This document shows, piece after piece, positions 347-61,127 of a DNA stretch of 64,000 nt. The position numbers and the translations under genes were made by a program. Location of the stretch: NCBI RefSeq assembly GCF_056712565.1, contig NZ_CM160072.1; one strand, given 5' to 3'. How positions within the stretch are numbered: the first letter of the stretch is position 1; every line of letters starts with the position of its first letter. Under the pieces are notes generated by a model that saw only the letters and a program-made list of their open reading frames with translations, searched no databases and was not told the DNA's origin.

Positions 347-811
347 ATGGAAAAGAAATTACCCCGCATTAAAGCGCTGCTAACCCCCGGCGAAGTGGCG
401 AAACGCAGCGGTGTGGCGGTATCGGCGCTGCATTTCTATGAAAGCAAAGGGTTGATTACCAGTATCCGTAATAGCGGCAATCAGCGGCGATATAAACGTG
501 ATGTGTTGCGATATGTCGCAATTATCAAAATTGCTCAGCGTATTGGCATTCCGCTCGCAACCATTCGTGAAGCGTTTGGCGTGTTGCCAGAAGGGCATAC
601 GTTAAGTGCGAAAGAGTGGAAACAGCTTTCGTCCCAATGGCGAGAAGAGTTGGATCGGCGCATTCATACCTTAGTGGCGCTGCGTGACGAACTGGATGGA
701 TGTATTGGTTGTGGCTGCCTTTCGCGCAGTGATTGCCCGTTGCGTAACCCGGGCGACCGATTAGGAGAAGAAGGTACCGGCGCACGCTTACTGGAAGATG
801 AACAAAACTAA
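347..811 (+). CDS. soxR: SoxR, MerR-family redox-sensing [2Fe-2S] transcriptional activator
   Basis: 154-aa ORF with N-terminal MerR helix-turn-helix and C-terminal [12 protein letters not shown] cysteine cluster. Confidence 0.95.
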
Positions 812-945
812 AGCGCCACAAGGGCGCTTTAGTTTGTTTTCCGGTCTTTGTCTTTCTCTCTATCCCGCTGGTACACAGGAGGGTTTCCCCCGACGTCAAC
901 ACACCTCATTCGAGCACGTGGTGGAGGTTCCGGTTGGTGTTGATG
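800..945 (-). ncRNA. ryjA: Possible RyjA small RNA, placed by synteny only
   Basis: In K-12 a roughly 140-nt sRNA is annotated antisense and overlapping the soxR 3' end; I cannot verify its sequence from memory, so the coordinates are approximate. Confidence 0.3.
810..840. terminator. Stem-loop directly after the soxR stop codon (AAAGCGCC/GGCGCTTT, loop ACAAG), possible bidirectional terminator
   Basis: 8-bp perfect stem at 810-817/823-830 followed by a T-rich tract on the plus strand. Confidence 0.5.
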
Positions 946-8701: not shown

Positions 8702-8907
8702 TTGCCGAATGTAGGCCGGATAAGGCGTTATACGCCGCATCCGGCAATCAATGCCTGATGCGACGCTGTCGCGTCTTATCAGGCCTACAGCCGTTGCCGA
8801 ATGTAGGCCGGATAAGGCGTTCACGCCGCATCCGGCAACCAGCGCCTGATGCGCCGCTGTCGCGTCTTATCAGGCCTACAAACCGTTACCGACTCGCATC
8901 CGGCAAT
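8702..8907. repeat. BIME: tandem duplication of a 92-bp unit of two REP-like palindromes (about 2.2 copies)
   Basis: Unit starting at 8702 repeats at 8794 with a few substitutions, followed by a partial third copy; contains GCCGGATAAGGCGTT..ACGCCGCATCCGGC and GCCTGATGCG..CGTCTTATCAGGCCTAC. Confidence 0.85.
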
Positions 8908-20242: not shown

Positions 20243-20947
20243 TTAATCCATCCGATGTTCCCCCTTTTCCATGGCGTCGCGATCAAAAAATCGCTGAATT
20301 TTTCCCTCGGACATCAATGCCGCTCGATCAGACATATGCGCGATGACATCGGCATCGTGACTGACCAGCAGATATGTCATTTGGTGTTCCAGCTTAAGTT
20401 GATTCAACAAATTAAGGATTTCCGCTTGTACCGACATATCCAACGCCGAGGTGGGTTCATCCAGCAGAAGAAGTTGTGGTCGTAACAACAGGGCGCGAGC
20501 AATAACCACACGTTGCCGTTGACCACCGGAAAGCTGGTGTGGGTAGCGACGAGCGGCGTCGAAAGGCAAGCCAACCTGTTCCAGTGCAGTCTGGACGCGT
20601 TTTTCTATTTCTCTTTCGCCACGAATTTTGAGTGGTTCAGCCAGCGTTCGCCACAGAGTATGATTGGGATGCAACGAGGCATAGGGATCCTGAAACACCA
20701 TTTGCACATTGCGGCGGAGATCGCCTTGAAAACGCATTCCTGGTTTGATGGTGTGCCCAAACAGTGACACCTGACCGTGCCAGTCGCGCTGTAATCCAGC
20801 AATTACGCGCAAAATCGTGGATTTTCCGCAGCTTGATTCGCCAATTAAACTAAATGTCTCTCCGGCATTAACCGAAAAACTGGCGGCAGAAACTGCGGTT
20901 TTCTCAGCAAAAGTCACCTGTAAGTGATTAATTTCAACAATCGTCAT
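20243..20947 (-). CDS. ABC transporter ATP-binding protein (short NikE/DppF-like)
   Basis: 234-aa ORF with Walker A GESSCGKST, signature LSGGQRQR, Walker B LLLDEPTSALD. Confidence 0.85.
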   Translation of the reverse strand: MTIVEINHLQVTFAEKTAVSAASFSVNAGETFSLIGESSCGKSTILRVIAGLQRDWHGQVSLFGHTIKPGMRFQGDLRRNVQMVFQDPYASLHPNHTLWRTLAEPLKIRGEREIEKRVQTALEQVGLPFDAARRYPHQLSGGQRQRVVIARALLLRPQLLLLDEPTSALDMSVQAEILNLLNQLKLEHQMTYLLVSHDADVIAHMSDRAALMSEGKIQRFFDRDAMEKGEHRMD

Positions 20948-21770
20948 GGTATTTCTCCGGCGTCATTGCCGTCCTGTCCAGCGTCGGCAGCATCTGCCCG
21001 TAAGTTTGTGCATTTGGGCGGCAAGTCCACAGTGTGCGCGTGTAAGGATGCGTTGCTGTAGGTAGCGCAGCAGCGTGCATTTCATCCACCTTATTTCCCT
21101 GATACATCACCAGCACCCGATGGCAAAATTGGGCAACTAATGGCAGGTCGTGACTGATCAGCAACATTGCCATCTGACGTTGTTCACACTGGGTAACCAG
21201 CAGTTCCAGAATCTGATTACGCAGGCGCACATCCAGTGCTGATGTTGGCTCATCGGCAATCAATACCCGGGGATCGTTGATGAGCGCAATTGCAATCATC
21301 ACTCGCTGCCCCATGCCGCCAGAAAGTTCACGAGGATAGCTTTGCAGTACTCGCGTATTGAGGCCGACAGCCTGAATTGCGGTGTTTATTTTCTCTTCTT
21401 TCTCGCGGCGGTTCAGACGTTGATGGAGCGTAAGCGCCTCTTCCAGTTGCGCTTTTACTGTCTTTACTGGATTAAGCGCGTAACGCGGATCTTGCAATAC
21501 CATCGCGATATCGTTACCGCGCAACTGTTGCCATCCACGCGCGTTAAGGGTGAGTGCATCACGCCCCAGAATGTTAAGTGTGTCCGCGGTTACTACACCC
21601 GGTTTACGCACCAGCCCCATCAGGGCGCGGGCGGTCATGGACTTACCTGAACCCGACTCACCGACCAGCGCCAGACGTTCATTGCCTAATGTAAAACTGA
21701 CATTGTTGACGACCCGGGACTCCGGATAATCGACGCAGAGATTGTTGATACTAAGACGTGAGTCAGTCAT
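20934..21770 (-). CDS. ABC transporter ATP-binding protein (short NikD/DppD-like)
   Basis: Walker A GESGSGKS, signature LSGGMGQR, Walker B LIADEPTSALD; start taken at MTDSRLSINN, giving an ATGACTGA overlap with the upstream permease stop. Confidence 0.85.
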   Translation of the reverse strand: MTDSRLSINNLCVDYPESRVVNNVSFTLGNERLALVGESGSGKSMTARALMGLVRKPGVVTADTLNILGRDALTLNARGWQQLRGNDIAMVLQDPRYALNPVKTVKAQLEEALTLHQRLNRREKEEKINTAIQAVGLNTRVLQSYPRELSGGMGQRVMIAIALINDPRVLIADEPTSALDVRLRNQILELLVTQCEQRQMAMLLISHDLPLVAQFCHRVLVMYQGNKVDEMHAAALPTATHPYTRTLWTCRPNAQTYGQMLPTLDRTAMTPEKYHDDC

Positions 21771-22596
21771 GTTGAGGCTCCAGAACATCGCGCAAGCCAT
21801 CACCCAGCAGATTAAAGGCCAGACTGGCAATTAAGATAATTGCGCCGGGAGCGGCGGCAATCCACCATTGATCAAAAATGACCTGCATACCGTCGGCGAT
21901 CATGGCTCCCCATTCCGCCATTGGCGGGCGAGCACCAAGCCCAAGAAAACCCAGGCCAGCAGCCGCCAGAATGATACCCGCTAAATCCAGTGCCAGACGG
22001 ACAATGGCAGATGGCAGGCACAATGGTAAAATATGACCAGCCAGCAGACGCCTGCCGCGGATGCCCATCATTTCTGCGGCGGCAAGATAATCACTGTGTC
22101 GCAGACGTTGGATCTCACTCCGTGCCTGACGCGCATAAGCAGGCCAGGTGGTTAATGCCAGGGCCAGTGCGCCGTTAACCAGCCCCGGCCCCAGCATGGC
22201 AACAAAAGCAAAAGCCAGAATTAAACGCGGCATTGACATTACTACGTCAGTAAAACGCATCAGCACGCGTTCCAGCCAGCCGCCGTAGTACCCGGCTAAA
22301 ATGCCAATCAGCAGACCGACCGGGAGTGTAATGATTGTCACCAATGCCACCAGCCCCAGTGCCGGGCGGCTGCCGTAGATTAAACGTGAAAGTAGGTCTC
22401 GTCCGTAACTGTCAGTGCCGAGCCAGTGCTGACGACTCGGTGCTTGTAACCGCGCCGCCGCATCCTGCCAGTTAGGATCGTGAGGTGCCAGCCACGGCGC
22501 GAAGAGCGCAATTAGCATTAATAACAGGATAATTATCAACCCGCAAAACGCGGCGGGTGAATGGCGTAAACGGCGTAAAAAGAGAAACATCGGCAT
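21763..22596 (-). CDS. ABC transporter permease (NikC/DppC-like)
   Basis: 277-aa polytopic ORF; start overlaps the stop of the upstream permease by 1 nt. Confidence 0.85.
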   Translation of the reverse strand: MPMFLFLRRLRHSPAAFCGLIIILLLMLIALFAPWLAPHDPNWQDAAARLQAPSRQHWLGTDSYGRDLLSRLIYGSRPALGLVALVTIITLPVGLLIGILAGYYGGWLERVLMRFTDVVMSMPRLILAFAFVAMLGPGLVNGALALALTTWPAYARQARSEIQRLRHSDYLAAAEMMGIRGRRLLAGHILPLCLPSAIVRLALDLAGIILAAAGLGFLGLGARPPMAEWGAMIADGMQVIFDQWWIAAAPGAIILIASLAFNLLGDGLRDVLEPQHD

Positions 22597-23645
22597 CAGC
22601 GTAACCTCGGATCGGTCAGCCGGACCAGCAGGTCGGTTAAGTTATTTATCAACACAAAGCAGACGCCAATCAGCAGCGTTCCTCCCATGATTGCTGTGGT
22701 ATCACCCGCGAAGAGCGCTGTAGTGAGGTAGCGCCCAATACCTGGCCATGAAAAGACGGTTTCTGTCAGTACCGCGCCTTCCAGCATTGATGTATAGGCG
22801 AGGGCGATAACGGTGAGCAAGGTGCCGCGAATGTTGGGTAAAACATGACGTAGCAAAATTGTCATCTCGCTGGCCCCTTTGGCGCGCGCCAGCAGAATAT
22901 ATTCTTTATTCATTTCGCCAAGACAGGCGGAACGAGTCAGGCGCGTAATACTGGCGAGCGAGAAGTACGCCAGTAATAAAACCGGAAGTATCAAATGGTT
23001 GATTGCATTGGTAAATGCCTCGCGATCGCCAGAAAGCCACGTATCAATCAGCGCAAATCCGCTGCGGGGTTCTATGGTGAATTGATAAATATCATCCAGC
23101 CTGCCCGGCCCGGCACTCCATTGCAGTCTGGCGTAGAACAGCGCCAGCATCAGCAGACCAAGCCAAAAAACAGGGACGGAATTTCCCAGTAGAGTTAATG
23201 TTCGCACGGTGAAATCCAGCGGAGAACCGACATAACGGGCGCAAAGTACACCCGCAATGACGCCGACAACAGCACCGACAATAAGCGCCAACGTTGCCAG
23301 TTCAATGGTCGCCGGGAATACTGATAGCAAGTCCTGGAGTACCGGTTGCCCGGTGGAGCTGGCGATGCCCAGATCGCCGTGTGCCAGATTCATCAGGTAA
23401 TGCCAGAACTGGACGGCTAACGGCTGATCCAATCCTAACTGGTGGCGTACCTGATCATAGGTGGACTGGCTGGCGTGATCGCCAACGATTTGTAGTACGC
23501 GATCGACCGGTGAGAGAGCCGAAAGCGCAAAGGTAATCAGCAGCAGGCCGAGTAGCGTCAGAGCAACGGTAAACAGCCCTTGCAACAGCGCGAGCAGAGG
23601 GCGCTTGCCTCGCCATCTCGCGCGAGTGGAAAAAACGACAGACAT
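22596..23645 (-). CDS. ABC transporter permease (NikB/DppB-like)
   Basis: Polytopic ORF; start uncertain, ATG at 23645 (349 aa) preferred over the ATG at 23738 because two strong stem-loops occupy 23660-23740. Confidence 0.8.
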   Translation of the reverse strand: MSVVFSTRARWRGKRPLLALLQGLFTVALTLLGLLLITFALSALSPVDRVLQIVGDHASQSTYDQVRHQLGLDQPLAVQFWHYLMNLAHGDLGIASSTGQPVLQDLLSVFPATIELATLALIVGAVVGVIAGVLCARYVGSPLDFTVRTLTLLGNSVPVFWLGLLMLALFYARLQWSAGPGRLDDIYQFTIEPRSGFALIDTWLSGDREAFTNAINHLILPVLLLAYFSLASITRLTRSACLGEMNKEYILLARAKGASEMTILLRHVLPNIRGTLLTVIALAYTSMLEGAVLTETVFSWPGIGRYLTTALFAGDTTAIMGGTLLIGVCFVLINNLTDLLVRLTDPRLR

Positions 23646-23744
23646 GATCTTTCCATACAGTGATAAATCAGCGGCTGGCCTGCAATACAGGCCAGCCCTG
23701 GTACCGCGCCCGGTAACAGGGCTGGACGCGAGTTGCATACAGGG

Positions 23745-25313
23745 TTATTTGGTTACCTGATCAAACCAGACCATATCGGCATTCAACCCTTGTTGATACC
23801 CCTGCACATTATCACGCATGACAATTTGCGTTTTGCCTTGATCAATAAAGACATACGGGGAACTACGTTGTAGTTCTTGTTGCATTTTCTTATACAAATC
23901 AAGACGTTTAGTGCTATCAGGTTCAGCGATGGCCGCCAGCGTTTCTTTGTTCAGTTCCGGGATTTTCCAGCCGTTTAACCCGGCAACGGTGCTGGATTTG
24001 CCATCGTTATAGGCGAAAGAGCTGGCGTTGGAATGTGCGTCAAAATAATCAGGCAACCACATACGAATGGCCCCCTGATGCTGGTGGGCGCGAACGCGAG
24101 AGTAGACCTGACTCCCTGCGGCTGGCAGCAAATCAACTTTTACACCGCCCTGAGCAAAGCTGGCCTGAATTGACTGCGCGATGGTAATAAATGGCGGTTT
24201 ATTTTCGACATCAAGCGTGAAGTGCGGGTCTTTGATTCCGGCTTTAGCGAGGATCTCTTTTGCTTTGGCTGGATTAAAGGTAAACGGTGTTTCTTCCAGT
24301 GCTCCAGGAAAGCCCACGGGCAGGAAACTTTGATGGGTAAAATATTGTCCTTTTAAGAGATTTTTGGTGATGCCGTCGTAATCGACCAACCAGCGAGCGG
24401 CCTCCCAGAACGCAGGATTACTCATCAGCGGGTTATCCTTGTTACCGGTATTGAAGGCCAGGTAGTTCTGTTCGGCGGAGGCAATGCTCATCACTTTTAC
24501 GCCAGGTTTACCCTGTAATGCATCGATTTGATCGGCTCCCAGATCACGAGCCATATCAGCATCACCTTGTTGGATCAGCAGGCGACGCGTTGCCGGATCG
24601 GGAACATTTTTGATGATGACGTTTTTCAGTTTCGGGGCGCCGGTTGGTGAGCTGGCGTTGGCTTCCATCACGATGGCCTGATGCGGTTGGTAAGTACGCA
24701 TTTTAAACGCGCCGCTGCCAGCGGAATGCATCTTCAGCCATTCATTACCAAAGTCGTTATTTTTGGCGTTTGGCGCAACCAGCTTCTCGTCAACAATTGA
24801 GGCGATTGGTGTGGAGAGAATATTCAGTGCCAGCGCCGGGCTGACGTCGGCACTCCATTGCACCTGGACGGTATGGTCATCGATTTTCTTCAACTGGCTG
24901 GCGATATTTTCCGGCTGCCATCCCAGCACATTGAGAATAAACGCACCGGATTTATTCAGTGTGACAGCCCGGACATAAGAGTAAATCACATCTTCCGGGC
25001 GTACCGGATTACCAGAGGCAAATTTCGCATCGCTTTTCAGTTTTATGGTTAGCGTTTTGGCTGCGGGGTCAGCCTGCCAACTTTCCGCCAGAATCGGAGT
25101 GATTTTCGTCGGATCATTACGGTCCGGTTGTACTACGCGTTGATACAGACTTGGTACAGTCTGAATACTTGAGAGTTCATTAGCTTCTGCCGGGTCCAGA
25201 CTCACAATATCATCCAGTCCCTGGGCTACAACCAACGTATTAGGCGGTGTAGCGGCAACGGTTGTGGCGGAAATTGTGCTTAAAACCAGTAAAGGTAATA
25301 GTTTTTTAATCAT
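23745..25313 (-). CDS. Periplasmic substrate-binding protein, family 5 (peptide/nickel/opine type)
   Basis: 522-aa ORF with signal peptide MIKKLLPLLVLSTISATTVAA; size and architecture like NikA/DppA/OppA. Confidence 0.85.
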   Translation of the reverse strand: MIKKLLPLLVLSTISATTVAATPPNTLVVAQGLDDIVSLDPAEANELSSIQTVPSLYQRVVQPDRNDPTKITPILAESWQADPAAKTLTIKLKSDAKFASGNPVRPEDVIYSYVRAVTLNKSGAFILNVLGWQPENIASQLKKIDDHTVQVQWSADVSPALALNILSTPIASIVDEKLVAPNAKNNDFGNEWLKMHSAGSGAFKMRTYQPHQAIVMEANASSPTGAPKLKNVIIKNVPDPATRRLLIQQGDADMARDLGADQIDALQGKPGVKVMSIASAEQNYLAFNTGNKDNPLMSNPAFWEAARWLVDYDGITKNLLKGQYFTHQSFLPVGFPGALEETPFTFNPAKAKEILAKAGIKDPHFTLDVENKPPFITIAQSIQASFAQGGVKVDLLPAAGSQVYSRVRAHQHQGAIRMWLPDYFDAHSNASSFAYNDGKSSTVAGLNGWKIPELNKETLAAIAEPDSTKRLDLYKKMQQELQRSSPYVFIDQGKTQIVMRDNVQGYQQGLNADMVWFDQVTK

Positions 25314-25515: not shown

Positions 25516-25608
25516 TTGCAATCGTGACTGGAATAGAAGAACAACCGAGAAGACGTCGCTAATAACCAGGATGGGCTGGTTTGACTGCGCAGGTATGTAT
25601 AAAAAAAT

Positions 25609-25644
25609 CCGGAAACAGAGAGTCGTTTCCGGATTGATACAAAG
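25609..25644 (-). terminator. Rho-independent terminator of fdhF
   Basis: Perfect 10-bp stem ATCCGGAAAC/GTTTCCGGAT with 8-nt loop, followed on the minus strand by a run of 7-8 U. Confidence 0.7.
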
Positions 25645-25687: not shown

Positions 25688-27835
25688 TTACGCCAGTGCC
25701 GCTTCGCGCAGGCGAGTTTTCAACTTGTTGTACTCGTCAATCACGTACTGCTCGGCGGCGCGCTGATCGGCGATCGGCTCGACGCGCACGGCGCAGTATT
25801 TGTATTCCGGCGTTTTCGTAATCGGGCTTAAGTTTTCGGTCACCAGCTCGTTACAGGCACCAATCCACCACTGGTAGGTCATGTAAATCGCCCCTTTGTT
25901 CGGACGATCGCTGACCTGCGCACGGGTGATAATTTTGCCTTTACGCGAGTGCACCCAAACCAATGCCTCATCTTCAATACCCAGACGTTTGGCGTCTTCG
26001 GTATTGATTTGTGCGTAGCCAGGTTCATCAGCCAGCGCCGCCAGTGCCGCACAGTTACCGGTCATCGAACGGCAAGAGTAGTGACCAACTTCACGCACCG
26101 TTGACAGTACCATCGGGTACTCGTCGGTGAGTTTGTCGATTGGCGCTACCCAGTCGCAGGTGAAGAACTGCGCCAGACCGTTCGGGGTATCAAACTTCTC
26201 TTTAAACAGATAAGAAGTCCCCTGATCGGCATCTGAAGTATCGCGGCAAGGCCACTGAATGAAGCCCAGTTCGCCCATTTTCTCGTAAGTCGCACCGTAG
26301 AAATCCGGGCACAGATGACGCAACTCGTCCCAGATCTCCTGGGTGTTGTTGTAGTGCATCGGATAACCCATACGAGTGGCAATTTCACTGATGATTTGCC
26401 AGTCCGTTTTCAGATCCCACTTCGGCTCAACCGCCTTGAAGAAACGCTGGAAGCCACGGTCAGCCGCAGTAAACACGCCTTCATGCTCGCCCCACGACGT
26501 TGACGGTAAAATGACATCCGCCGCCGACGCGGTTTTGGTCATAAAGATGTCCTGAACGATAACCAGTTCCAGATCTTCAAAGGCTTTACGTACTGCCGAC
26601 AGTTCCGCGTCAGTTTGCAGCGGATCTTCGCCCATAATGTACGCCGCTCTCACTTCACCATGCGCCACGCGGTGCGGCAGCTCGCTGATACGATAACCGG
26701 TATGAGCAGGCAGGCTTTCCACGCCCCAGGCTTTGGCAAATTTCTCGCGGTTAGCCGGATCTTTCACGTACTGATAGCCCGGATACGTATCCGGCAGCGC
26801 GCCCATATCGCAGGCACCCTGCACGTTGTTCTGACCACGAACCGGGTTTACACCCGCATGTGGCTTACCGAGGTTACCGGTCAGCATCGCGAGGCTGGTC
26901 AGAGAACGCACGGTTTCCACGCCCTGATAGAACTGGGTTACCCCCATGCCCCACAGGATGGCGGCGCTTTCCGCCTGGGCATACATCCGCGCCGCCTGAC
27001 GAATCTCACTGGCGCTGACGCCGGTGATATCTTCAACCGACTCCGGCGTGTAGCCTTCAACGATTTTACGATACTCTTCAAAGCCTTCTGTACGGGAAGC
27101 GACGAACGCTTTGTCGTACAGATTTTCTTCAATAATGACATGGCCCATCGCATTCAACAGCGCGATGTTCGAGCCGTTTTTCAATGCAATGTGCATGTCA
27201 GCAATGCGCGCGGTTTCAATTTTACGCGGATCGCAGACGATAATTTTCGCCCCGTTACGTTTAGCGTTAATTACGTGATTCGCCACGATTGGGTGGGAAT
27301 CCGCCGGGTTATACCCGAAAACGAACACTAAATCGGTATTATCAATTTCGTTAATAGCATTGCTCATTGCGCCATTACCGACCGATTGGTGCAGACCTGC
27401 AACCGATGGGCCGTGTCAGACACGAGCGCAGCAGTCAACGTTATTGGTACCAATAACGGCGCGCGCAAATTTTTGCATTACATAGTTGGTTTCGTTACCC
27501 GTACCGCGCGAGGAGCCGGTCGTCTGGATGGCATCCGGACCGTACTTCTCTTTGATGGCGCTCAGGCGCTCGGCAACGTAATTCAGTGCCTCATCCCAGG
27601 AAACAGGTTCGAGTTTGCCGCCACGCTGGCGACGGATCATGGGGGTTTTCAGGCGCGGGGTCAGGATCTGGGTATCGTTAATGAAGTCCCAGCCATAATA
27701 ACCCTTCAGACACAGGGTACCCTGGTTGGTTTTCCCCTGCGCTGCCTCCGCCCGGACGATTTTGCCGTTATCGACGACCAGGTTGATTTTGCAACCTGAT
27801 GCGCAATAGGGGCAAACCGTGACGACTTTTTTCAT
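25688..27835 (-). CDS. fdhF: Formate dehydrogenase H, selenocysteine-containing molybdoenzyme; in-frame TGA (Sec) at 27417-27419
   Basis: The 139-aa and 559-aa ORFs are contiguous in one frame across a single TGA (..DCCARV-U-HGPSVAGLHQ..); N-terminal CPYCASGC Fe-S motif; total 715 aa. Confidence 0.9.
27370..27416 (-). other. fdhF SECIS stem-loop directing selenocysteine insertion at the TGA
   Basis: mRNA immediately 3' of the UGA (CACGGCCCAUCGGUUGCAGGUCUGCACCAAUCGGUCGG) is the hairpin-forming segment known as the fdhF SECIS. Confidence 0.6.
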
Positions 27836-27876
27836 CGGTCTCGCTCCAGTTAATCAAATCACGCATACGCGCTCTC

Positions 27877-27892
27877 GACTACAGTATGCATC
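27877..27892 (-). promoter_or_regulatory. Sigma-54 (-24/-12) promoter TGGCAT-N7-ATGCA for fdhF
   Basis: Minus-strand TGGCATAAAAGATGCA has GG and GC at the canonical spacing, about 45 bp upstream of the fdhF ATG. Confidence 0.55.
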
Positions 27893-27963
27893 TTTTATGC
27901 CACATTTTATTTGGGGTCATTCCCTGATATTACGGGCACTATTTATTCAAAACTCTGACGAAA

Positions 27964-27977
27964 AACAGGCTGTCGTC
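27964..27977. promoter_or_regulatory. Inverted repeat CGTCA-GTTT-TGACG in the fdhF upstream region, candidate activator (FhlA) site
   Basis: Palindrome about 100 bp upstream of the sigma-54 promoter, where the enhancer site is expected. Confidence 0.3.
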
Positions 27978-28032
27978 AGTTTTGACGTGACGAAACGAAA
28001 TACCGCGTGACAGCCATCACGCGGTAGACATT

Positions 28033-50792: not shown

Positions 50793-51635
50793 TCAGATAA
50801 AGTGCTTACGCAACCGTTGAGAGAGGAAATCCAGCAGGCTGACCGTGACGATGATGAGCACCATCAGGGCGCAGGTTTGCTGGAACTGGAAACCGCGAAT
50901 CGCTTCCCACAGCGTGACGCCGATCCCGCTCGCGCCAACCATACCGACGACGGTCGCCGAGCGGACGTTGGATTCGAAGCGATAGAGAGAGTAGGAAATC
51001 AGCAGCGGCATGACCTGCGGTAGTACGCCGTAGAGGATCTCTTCCAGCTTGTTGGCACCGGTAGCGCGAATGCCCTCCACCGGGCCGGGTTCAATCGCTT
51101 CTACCGCTTCGGAAAGCAGTTTGGAAAGTACGCCGGTGGTGTGGATAAACAGCGCCAGCACGCCAGCGAACGGGCCGAGGCCGACGGCGACCACGAACAG
51201 CATGGCGAAGACTATTTCGTTAATGGCGCGGCAGGCGTCCATCAGGCGGCGTACAGGTTGGTAGACCCACCACGGTACCAGGTTTTCAGCGCTCATCAGG
51301 CCGAAGGGGATGGAGAGAACCACCGCCAGCGCGGTGCCCCAGACGGCGATTTGCAGCGTGACGGCCATTTCGGTGAGGTAATCCTGCCACTGGCTGAAAT
51401 CGGGCGGGAAGAAGTCGGCGGCGAACGTCGCCATGTTGCCGCCATCTTTAATCAGCGTAAGCGGTGCCATTTCCGCGCCCTGCCACGAGACGACCAGCAC
51501 GGCGATAACAACGGCCCAGCTCAGAAGCGAGAACCAGCTGCGCTTGGGTGGGGCGATGGTGATGGTTTGCATGTTTGGCTCCGGTCTGTAGGCCGGATAA
51601 GGTGCTTGCACCGCATCCGGCATCAACGTCTGCAC
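50793..51635 (-). CDS. phnE: Phosphonate ABC transporter permease; open reading frame uninterrupted
   Basis: Continuous 280-aa ORF (internal alternative start [10 protein letters not shown] possible) with polytopic topology. Confidence 0.85.
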
Positions 51636-51680
51636 ATTGTCGGATGCGACGCCGGGGCGTCTTATCCGACCTACGATTTA
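51585..51680. repeat. REP element pair between phnE and phnD
   Basis: GTAGGCCGGATAAGG..CATCCGGC and CGGATGCGACG..CGTCTTATCCGACCTAC palindromes. Confidence 0.8.
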
Positions 51681-54147: not shown

Positions 54148-54230
<83 letters not shown>

Positions 54231-59850: not shown

Positions 59851-59900
59851 GCTGAAACGGATGGCCTGATGTGACGCTGTCTAATCAGGTCAATTGAACT

Positions 59901-59917
59901 CTTAAGGTTCACTTAAT
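59901..59917 (+). promoter_or_regulatory. PmrA (BasR) box CTTAAG-GTTCA-CTTAAT upstream of pmrR
   Basis: Direct hexamer repeat with 5-bp spacer matching the YTTAAK-N5-YTTAAK PmrA consensus, 45 bp upstream of the pmrR ATG. Confidence 0.6.
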
Positions 59918-59961
59918 CTCTGACGCGCATACTCTCCTCCAGGTTAACGGAGGAGAGTGCA

Positions 59962-60051
59962 ATGAAAAACCGTGTTTATGAAAGTTTAACTACCGTGTTC
60001 AGCGTGCTGGTGGTCAGCAGCTTTCTTTATATCTGGTTTGCCACGTACTGA
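59962..60051 (+). CDS. pmrR: PmrR, 29-aa membrane peptide (PmrA-activated regulator of LpxT)
   Basis: ORF MKNRVYESLTTVFSVLVVSSFLYIWFATY with one transmembrane helix, preceded by GGAGGAGAG; its 3' end overlaps the basS 3' end on the opposite strand. Confidence 0.6.
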   Translation: MKNRVYESLTTVFSVLVVSSFLYIWFATY

Positions 60052-61127
60052 TCTTTTTTCAGCCGTATCCAGGCCCGCGTGCCGGAAGTCTCTTGCCGGT
60101 TTTGCAGGAAAAACTGCCCGTGATGCAACTGTGTAATGCGGCTGACAATACTTAACCCCAGACCAATCCCGCCATAACGGCTGTCCATTCGTACAAACGC
60201 TTTACTCAACTCCCCGCATTTACTCTCATCAATACCCGGCCCTTCATCTTCAACGGCCATGACCGCTCCGCCATCTTCTTGCAGCTTAATCATAATGTTG
60301 CTGCCTTGTGGGCTATAACGATGGGCGTTTTCTACCAGGTTTCGCAATAACATCCGCAGCAGGGTTGCATCACCCTGAACGGTGATGTCGGCGGCGCTCT
60401 CTGGCAATAGCAGGGTTTGCTGGCGCTGGTCGAGCATGGTACTAAGTTCGTCATACGAGGGGAGAATGACATCTTCCAGCAGTTTTACATGTTGATAATT
60501 ACCGGAAGAAAATGACTGTCCGGCACGCGCCAGTTGCAGCAGCTGGGAGACGCTCTCCATCATCTGATCAAGTCGTGCCACTAACGGTGCTACATCAATG
60601 TGATGCGTTTTCGCCAGCAGTTCCAGATGCAAACGCACCCCCGCCAGTGGTGTTCGCAGTTCGTGCGCGACGTCAGCGGTAAACAACCTTTCGTTATCCA
60701 GCGTGCTGGTCAGGCGACTGACCAGATCGTTTAACGCCGAAACCACCGCATCGATTTCGAGGGTGGCGCTATGAATGGCAATGGGCGTTAAGTTATCGGC
60801 GGTGCGCGCTTCCAGCTCTTTTTGCAGCTCCGCCAGCGGTCGGGTGATGCGGCGTACCGCCTGATAGCAGATAAATAGCGTCAGGCTAACCATAAAGACG
60901 CCGGGGACAATCAGGCTGGCGACCGCCTCGCGGATCTCACGCATGATGTGGCGATCGTTGTTGCGATTGTCGCGTAGCGCCTGCTCAAACAGCTGAATCT
61001 GCTCGGTACTTTCATGCCACAGCCAGAAGACGCTGATCAGCTCAAACACCAACAAAATGGCCCCGATGGTCAATATCAGCCGTTGGCGCAGCGATATTGG
61101 TCGGCGCAGAAAACGCATCAGATTCAA
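60027..61127 (-). CDS. basS: Sensor histidine kinase BasS/PmrB
   Basis: HAMP and HisKA (HELRTPL) motifs; start could be 61127 or the ATG at 61118. Confidence 0.9.
   Translation of the reverse strand: MNLMRFLRRPISLRQRLILTIGAILLVFELISVFWLWHESTEQIQLFEQALRDNRNNDRHIMREIREAVASLIVPGVFMVSLTLFICYQAVRRITRPLAELQKELEARTADNLTPIAIHSATLEIDAVVSALNDLVSRLTSTLDNERLFTADVAHELRTPLAGVRLHLELLAKTHHIDVAPLVARLDQMMESVSQLLQLARAGQSFSSGNYQHVKLLEDVILPSYDELSTMLDQRQQTLLLPESAADITVQGDATLLRMLLRNLVENAHRYSPQGSNIMIKLQEDGGAVMAVEDEGPGIDESKCGELSKAFVRMDSRYGGIGLGLSIVSRITQLHHGQFFLQNRQETSGTRAWIRLKKDQYVANQI

Follow-up and report, generated by a model that had tools for sequence, protein, structure and literature searches.

An intact Escherichia coli fdhF gene with an in-frame UGA codon 140 and a SECIS_2 element

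Introduction

The selenocysteine (Sec) recoding site of fdhF is already known and is the reference example of selenocysteine recoding in Bacteria. In Escherichia coli, the determinants of the fdhF SECIS are a 17-nt upper stem-loop situated 11 nt from the UGA, a bulged U17, and G23 and U24 within the loop; the lower stem makes only a modest contribution (PMC8659212). Serine is placed on tRNA(Sec) by SerRS, and SelA then generates Sec-tRNA(Sec) using the selenophosphate supplied by SelD (PMC4513850). The affinity of SelB-GTP is picomolar for Sec-tRNA(Sec) and nanomolar for the SECIS, which it contacts through its domain 4 (PMC4513850). Recruited early to the SECIS, outside the ribosome, the complex takes precedence over release factor 2 (RF2) at the UGA (PMC4513850). 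Once in the mRNA channel, the lower stem unwinds while the upper part remains folded (PMC4513850). With an fdhF mRNA fragment (...TNNVDCCARV-Sec), the efficiency of Sec insertion is about 40%, both in vivo and in vitro; some 35-40% of ribosomes insert Sec, and RF2 terminates the rest (PMC4513850).

Several related systems exist. The SECIS elements of E. coli FdnG and FdoG are like that of fdhF in having an in-frame UGA in the context ...ARVUHGP..., a molybdopterin formate dehydrogenase as host gene, and a SelB-binding hairpin directly 3' of the UGA, but their stem sequence and downstream peptide differ. From our reading of the model consensus, these elements probably correspond to Rfam RF01989 (SECIS_3). 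Cys-type FdhF paralogues, found in Enterobacterales and other bacteria, belong to the same family and carry the motif CCARV-C-HGPSV, with TGC or TGT in place of TGA, often beside a Sec-type copy in one genome. Eukaryotic and archaeal SECIS elements serve the same purpose as the fdhF SECIS, namely the use of an mRNA structure to recode UGA as selenocysteine. They reside in untranslated regions, adopt a different (kink-turn type) fold and are recognized by other binding proteins. Unlike them, the fdhF SECIS lies inside the coding sequence, directly past the UGA, and SelB itself recognizes it.

Here, we analyzed a 64,000-nt stretch of DNA (hereafter the window) and find that positions 25688-27835 of its minus strand almost certainly represent an intact E. 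coli fdhF gene, in which UGA140 is decoded as selenocysteine via a 3' SECIS hairpin and SelB. The locus shares with the K-12 UGA140/SECIS_2 (RF01988) system the gene, the codon position, the flanking peptide, the 17-nt apical stem-loop, and U17, G23 and U24. Nothing of substance differs between K-12 and the window, the strain background of which is ATCC 11775-like. The published in-vitro recoding substrate also encodes the same peptide, TNNVDCCARV-Sec, as the fdhF of the window (PMC4513850). Our own analysis covers the gene, the codon, the match of the element in sequence and structure, the evolutionary constraint, and the machinery genes; SelB binding, Sec insertion and competition with RF2 we infer from the literature on this same E. 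coli sequence.

Results

A single reading frame spans the TGA at codon 140

The minus-strand frame that begins with the ATG at 27835 and ends with the TAA at 25690-25688 comprises 716 codons, and its sole internal stop is a TGA at codon 140. The principal features are the following.

25688..27835, minus strand: fdhF coding sequence, formate dehydrogenase H with Sec at codon 140 (715 codons plus TAA), from translation, RefSeq, TIGR01591 and PDB 1AA6
27416..27418, minus strand: UGA140, the selenocysteine codon, by direct reading and by alignment to X140 of PDB 1AA6

An earlier note on this DNA, made from the sequence alone, had described fdhF as split by one in-frame TGA. This is accurate, save that the note put the codon at 27417-27419, a shift of one base from the position read here. 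An ORF listing cuts the gene into two, 27416..27835 (139 aa) and 25688..27367 (559 aa, counted from the next ATG). Yet the frame is open directly past the TGA, and the downstream 575 codons are open and in frame. Translation of the flanks gives NNVDCCARV*HGPSVAGLHQSVG, in agreement with the ..CCARV-U-HGPSVAG.. context noted earlier, and the predicted Sec-bearing peptide of FdhF is CCARV-U-HGPSVAGLHQSVGNGAMSNAINEIDNTDLVFVFGYNPADSHPIVANHVINAK. The note's expectation that automated callers would break the gene holds for the ORF lister, but the current RefSeq annotation (PGAP) gives a single 2148-nt CDS, 'formate dehydrogenase H subunit alpha, selenocysteine-containing'. That annotation is correct.

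The assignment of the gene to fdhF, also proposed in the note, is confirmed by several comparisons. The RefSeq name applies at 100% identity. With the TGA bridged, the NCBIfam profile TIGR01591 matches at 1095.7 bits (curated cut-off, 666.25 bits), and residues 6-685 align to profile positions 1-672 in one stretch across the TGA. The structures PDB 1AA6, 1FDO, 2IV2 and 7Z0T align to FdhF residues 1-715 and have a non-standard residue (X) at 140. K289E and A390V are the sole differences between the FdhF of the window and 1AA6. The translation retains C8, C11, C15, C42, U140 (TGA), H141 and R333; we take the four cysteines to be the N-terminal 4Fe-4S ligands, and Sec140, His141 and Arg333 to form the active site, as in the FDH-H structure. 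The TGA thus coincides with the known fdhF Sec codon, as had been claimed: it aligns to X140 of 1AA6, and paralogues of other species have Cys (TGC/TGT) there.

Among complete E. coli genomes, 5419 of 5426 carry fdhF. A 2.3-kb segment containing the gene is 100% identical at the DNA level to fdhF in E. coli ATCC 11775 (NZ_CP033092.2) and in many other strains. The window is E. coli chromosomal DNA and, compared over 42.3 kb, departs from this type-strain record at only three places, all outside fdhF: two base substitutions and the deletion of a single base. Adjoining fdhF is a five-gene ABC-transporter insertion, which leaves the gene untouched and is present in 1043 of 5426 genomes.

Sequencing or assembly error in a TGC or TGT cysteine codon could in principle create such a TGA, and the window does have a one-base difference from the type-strain record at 40379, elsewhere in the window. 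We give this explanation a vanishingly small probability, given that many independent complete genomes match the fdhF region at 100% identity and that the 80 nt around the TGA are the same in 5393 records.

A second explanation is that the TGA is a true nonsense codon, so that fdhF would be split or decaying, leaving a 139-residue fragment and a relic downstream frame. ORF calling does yield two ORFs, and real lesions occur elsewhere in the window, where alsC has an internal stop and alsB a frameshift. Against a nonsense codon, the downstream 575 codons are not only open but identical to crystallised FDH-H save for two substitutions, and full-length, selenium-containing FdhF has been published for E. 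coli K-12 (PDB 1AA6; PMC4513850). Together with the conservation, constraint and machinery described below, this makes a nonsense codon exceedingly improbable.

A SECIS_2 element lies directly 3' of the UGA

The hairpin 3' of the UGA, which the note had equated with the SECIS element, gives a full-length match to Rfam SECIS_2 (RF01988) at 87.1 bits (E = 4.3e-18; model positions 1-55 of 55; 27423-27369, minus strand), above the gathering score of 70 bits. It is the sole such element within the 64-kb window. The SECIS_3 model matches the window sequence only weakly (35.8 bits, well under its gathering score of 63). Counting from the U of the UGA as nt 1, the element is organized as follows.

27369..27423, minus strand: SECIS_2 match span, with an outer 5-bp helix (nt -5..-1 paired with nt +46..+50), from the Rfam covariance model
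27379..27418, minus strand: fdhF SECIS in the 40-nt sense of the literature (nt 1-40 from the U of the UGA), an imperfect hairpin, from the MFE fold and paired cells
27388..27404, minus strand: GGUUGCAGGUCUGCACC (nt 15-31), the minimal apical stem-loop, which the literature gives as the part bound by SelB, by direct reading at the positions of PMC8659212

In the MFE structure, nt 3-21 pair with nt 26-42, and the apical stem shows a single bulged U and a GGUC loop. The determinants of the fdhF SECIS (the nt 15-31 stem-loop, U17, G23 and U24) all occur at their published positions; read directly on the minus strand, the bulged U17 occupies 27402, and the loop residues G23 and U24 occupy 27396 and 27395.

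Folding energy does not set the hairpin apart

The hairpin has a predicted energy of -14.9 kcal/mol over nt 1-43 and -19.7 kcal/mol over the 55-nt Rfam span. Compared with dinucleotide shuffles, its stability is not beyond chance (z = -1.3 for 43 nt and -1.2 for 55 nt), nor does it stand out from synonymous recodings of the same peptide (z = -0.9 when weighted by codon usage and -1.8 with uniform choice). When the fdhF mRNA is scanned in codon-phased 45-nt windows, the SECIS segment comes 87th of 701 by energy. As no null makes the hairpin stand out, we left its stability out as evidence. Folding of the 40 nt downstream of the UGA, the check put forward in the note, therefore yields the hairpin but does not distinguish it from background, and this fold alone is not decisive. 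The literature does not count unusual stability among the defining features of the SECIS_2 family, and stability makes a poor test. It is the particular shape and sequence of the element, not its energy, that go beyond chance, as seen in the SECIS_2 score and in the confinement of the apical hairpin to TGA homologues.

These energies bear on a third explanation, in which the UGA is read through independently of any SECIS, a near-cognate tRNA inserting Trp or Cys, and the hairpin is a mere by-product of the peptide. That the hairpin is no stabler than synonymous recodings of the same peptide is in keeping with this, and SECIS-independent UGA read-through of about 5-8% has been published (PMC4513850). 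However, SECIS-dependent recoding is about 40%, several-fold over that background (PMC4513850), and the comparison of Sec and Cys genes across species, presented next, also speaks against it. We regard read-through without a SECIS as very improbable.

Constraint on the hairpin is confined to TGA genes

Species-representative genomes were scanned with the degenerate pattern CCARV[U/C]HGP, which returned at least 120 loci; 58 TGA loci and 62 TGC/TGT loci were among the matches listed. The sequence RCAGGTCTGC at +18..+27, which forms the apical hairpin, was found in all 57 TGA loci and in none of the 61 Cys loci, among the matches listed. Likewise, among the matches listed, the GGUC loop was present in 31/31 distinct Sec 55-mers as against 2/62 Cys sequences, and the six upper pairs were formed in 96.8% of cells for Sec and 42.7% for Cys. 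At its gathering score, SECIS_2 matched six of nine Sec loci and zero of nine Cys loci. Both types can coexist: in Citrobacter werkmanii, one copy has TGA (L008) and another has TGT (L009) in the same genome.

Synonymous sites show the same division. Among the matches listed, third-position entropy over codons +1..+13 was 0.50 bit in TGA genes, whose own flanks had 1.21 and 1.26 bit, whereas in Cys genes it was 1.49 bit, with own flanks of 1.27 and 1.34 bit. Synonymous sites are thus frozen only over the SECIS and only in TGA genes, and the constraint is both local and UGA-specific. The Sec-type sequences come from a narrow phylogenetic range (mostly Enterobacterales and Pasteurellaceae), and part of their conservation is due to relatedness, which the same-gene flank control addresses.

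Pairing is also maintained through sequence change. Pairing reached 92% of cells over 32 distinct Sec-type sequences, compared with 22-49% for slid-partner controls (among the matches listed). Compensatory changes occur at two upper-stem pairs, G15:C31 to U:A and U18:A29 to A:U. They were found in six distinct sequences with a variant apical stem, among them those of Haemophilus, Aggregatibacter, Pasteurella, Cricetibacter and Necropsobacter, and this covariation is probably a single ancestral event. The register used in Rfam, in which U18 is bulged, leaves a mismatched pair in these six sequences, whereas bulging U17 produces compensatory A:U pairs there. We therefore adopted the register of the literature (U17 bulged). 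The outer 5-bp helix is paired in 99% of Sec-type but also in 87% of Cys-type sequences (among the matches listed), and for this reason was not counted as evidence of a specific function.

These patterns run counter to SECIS-free read-through. Cys homologues encode nearly the same peptide (HGPSVAGLQ...), but none of 61 among the matches listed has the apical GGUC hairpin, their third positions vary freely, and they show no extra synonymous constraint; TGA genes freeze their third positions and exhibit compensatory pairs. A nonsense codon fits no better: past the TGA, synonymous sites are more constrained, not less. Of 5420 E. coli records, 5393 share an identical 80-nt stretch around the UGA, and the TGA recurs in at least 58 loci from other species and genera. 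All three competing explanations (nonsense codon, SECIS-free read-through and sequencing error) are contradicted by the conservation of the TGA in thousands of genomes, by the UGA-specific constraint on the hairpin, and by the intact downstream frame; taken jointly, they retain only a very slight probability.

The selenocysteine machinery is complete in a near-identical genome

The note had called for selABC and selD to be confirmed elsewhere in the genome. A tRNA scan of the 64-kb window detected no tRNA gene, and the window contains none of the sel genes. Synteny served to find them in NZ_CP033092.2, the near-identical genome with three differences from the window over 42.3 kb. There, selA, selB, selC (tRNA-Sec) and selD are all annotated as intact.

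NZ_CP033092.2, 43356-43450: tRNA-Sec (selC), from annotation
NZ_CP033092.2, 120130-121521: selA, from annotation
NZ_CP033092.2, 121518-123362: selB, from annotation
NZ_CP033092.2, 2246950-2247993: selD, from annotation

More broadly, 5424 of the 5426 complete E. coli genomes carry tRNA-Sec. A complete Sec machinery, as found in this near-identical genome, is further evidence against the TGA being a nonsense codon. It also disposes of a condition that the note had named as refuting its reading, a genome lacking that machinery.

Signals flanking fdhF

Four candidate expression signals flank the gene.

27887..27902, minus strand: candidate sigma-54 type -24/-12 promoter element TGGCATAAAAGATGCA, by consensus match
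27844..27847, minus strand: Shine-Dalgarno GGAG, 8 nt upstream of the ATG, by direct reading
27969..27992, minus strand: candidate FhlA activator site made of inverted repeats of the TCGTCA/TGACGA type, some 100 nt upstream of the -12 element, by sequence reading
25606..25635, minus strand: intrinsic-terminator-like hairpin about 50 nt past the fdhF stop, a 12-pair stem followed by TTTTTAT, by consensus match only

The pattern TGGCAYNNNNNWTGCW has a single match in the 64-kb window (about 0.65 expected), which falls within the 197-bp spacer upstream of fdhF. No sigma-70-like site was found upstream of fdhF on the same strand. Regulation of fdhF involves sigma-54 with FhlA and formate, and the TGGCATAAAAGATGCA element is probably the known sigma-54/FhlA-dependent fdhF promoter. 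The repeats at 27969..27992 may be the FhlA site, given the position of the fdhF upstream activating sequence.

Discussion

We find that the UGA at codon 140 of this fdhF is accompanied by the SECIS element with its published determinants and, in a near-identical genome, by the four machinery genes. If the locus operates as its K-12 counterpart does, the selC product, tRNA(Sec), would first be loaded with serine, and SelA would then turn it into Sec-tRNA(Sec) using the selenophosphate of SelD. SelB-GTP would carry the Sec-tRNA(Sec), and SelB domain 4 would bind the apical stem-loop (nt 15-31), which starts 11 nt past the UGA. Tethered beside the ribosome in this way, the complex would allow Sec-tRNA(Sec) to reach the UGA in the A site before release factor 2, and the lower SECIS stem would melt on entry to the mRNA channel. 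The resulting FdhF would be the molybdopterin- and selenium-containing subunit of formate hydrogenlyase.

It is conceivable, although unlikely, that the UGA and SECIS also constitute a selenium-dependent gate on fdhF expression. With the Sec-tRNA(Sec)-SelB complex in short supply, ribosomes would halt or end translation at codon 140, and the mRNA beyond it, no longer coupled to them, would be terminated early or degraded. Should such a gate exist, the level of the fdhF transcript would track selenium supply. A comparable effect is reported for a formate dehydrogenase gene of Treponema primitia (PMC3892789).

For the window itself, the value of these findings is one of annotation only: the two ORFs at 25688-27835 represent one functional selenoprotein gene, and neither a pseudogene nor a split gene. 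For genome scans, folding energy is no useful filter for bacterial SECIS elements, given that even the reference element is unremarkable by this measure. A covariance model, or the contrast between Sec and Cys genes at synonymous sites, separates real SECIS elements cleanly.

Genomic setting of fdhF

The fdhF gene is separated from yjcO by five genes encoding an ABC transporter, which consists of one substrate-binding protein, two permeases, and two ATPases.

20243-25313, five-gene ABC transporter, between yjcO and fdhF

These five genes were found in only 1043 of 5426 complete Escherichia coli genomes, with nearly all copies sharing at least 99% identity. Given this restricted occurrence, the transporter is a lineage-restricted insertion adjoining fdhF.

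We compared 42.3 kb of the window with the E. coli type strain ATCC 11775 (NZ_CP033092.2) and detected only three differences.

17739, C to T
36713, G to A
40379, one-base deletion (in alsB)

With so few differences, the window derives from ATCC 11775 itself, from a very close relative, or from another version of its assembly.

Two lesions were also observed in the window's D-allose operon.

36959-37939, alsC, internal stop
39577-40517, alsB, frameshift lesion at 40379

The RefSeq annotation of the type strain likewise flags alsC as a pseudogene. The alsB frameshift results from the loss of a single base (CC to C) that is not seen in NZ_CP033092.2; it may reflect true variation between strains or a mistake in either assembly.

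Further Rfam matches in the window, all taken above the gathering score, comprised two small RNAs and four naRNA4 copies, which are features expected in E. coli.

804-944, minus strand, sraL small RNA
8714-8785, plus strand, naRNA4 copy
8806-8876, plus strand, naRNA4 copy
51591-51671, plus strand, naRNA4 copy
54148-54225, minus strand, naRNA4 copy
59893-60058, plus strand, STnc630 small RNA

Product names for fdhF are inconsistent across RefSeq E. coli genomes (records including NZ_CP038300.1). The gene product appears as 'formate dehydrogenase subunit alpha' and as '...H subunit alpha, selenocysteine-containing'; one sampled record instead carries '...N subunit alpha, selenocysteine-containing', which is the wrong isoenzyme.

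Divergent SECIS elements and a Sec/Cys gene pair

Three loci from other species have a TGA codon and a hairpin with an apical GGUC, yet score below the gathering score of the Rfam model SECIS_2.

L007, Haemophilus haemolyticus
L037, Budvicia diplopodorum
L076, Pasteurella bettyae

Their structures have either a broken lower stem or a compensated variant in the upper stem. The curated SECIS_2 cut-off thus misses divergent SECIS elements of the fdhF type.

A single contig of Hafnia paralvei (NZ_LXET01000052.1) carries both a selenocysteine-type (Sec-type) and a cysteine-type (Cys-type) copy.

944-969, Sec-type copy (L064), TGA
1656-1681, Cys-type copy (L065), TGC

A hairpin with a perfect 6-bp stem, GUUGCA-GGCC-UGCAAC, occupies the SECIS position of the Cys-type copy, which is unusual for a copy of this type. 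Unlike the fdhF SECIS, this hairpin is without the bulged U, and C replaces U24. It may be coincidental, or it may be a SECIS relic left behind by the replacement of selenocysteine with cysteine.
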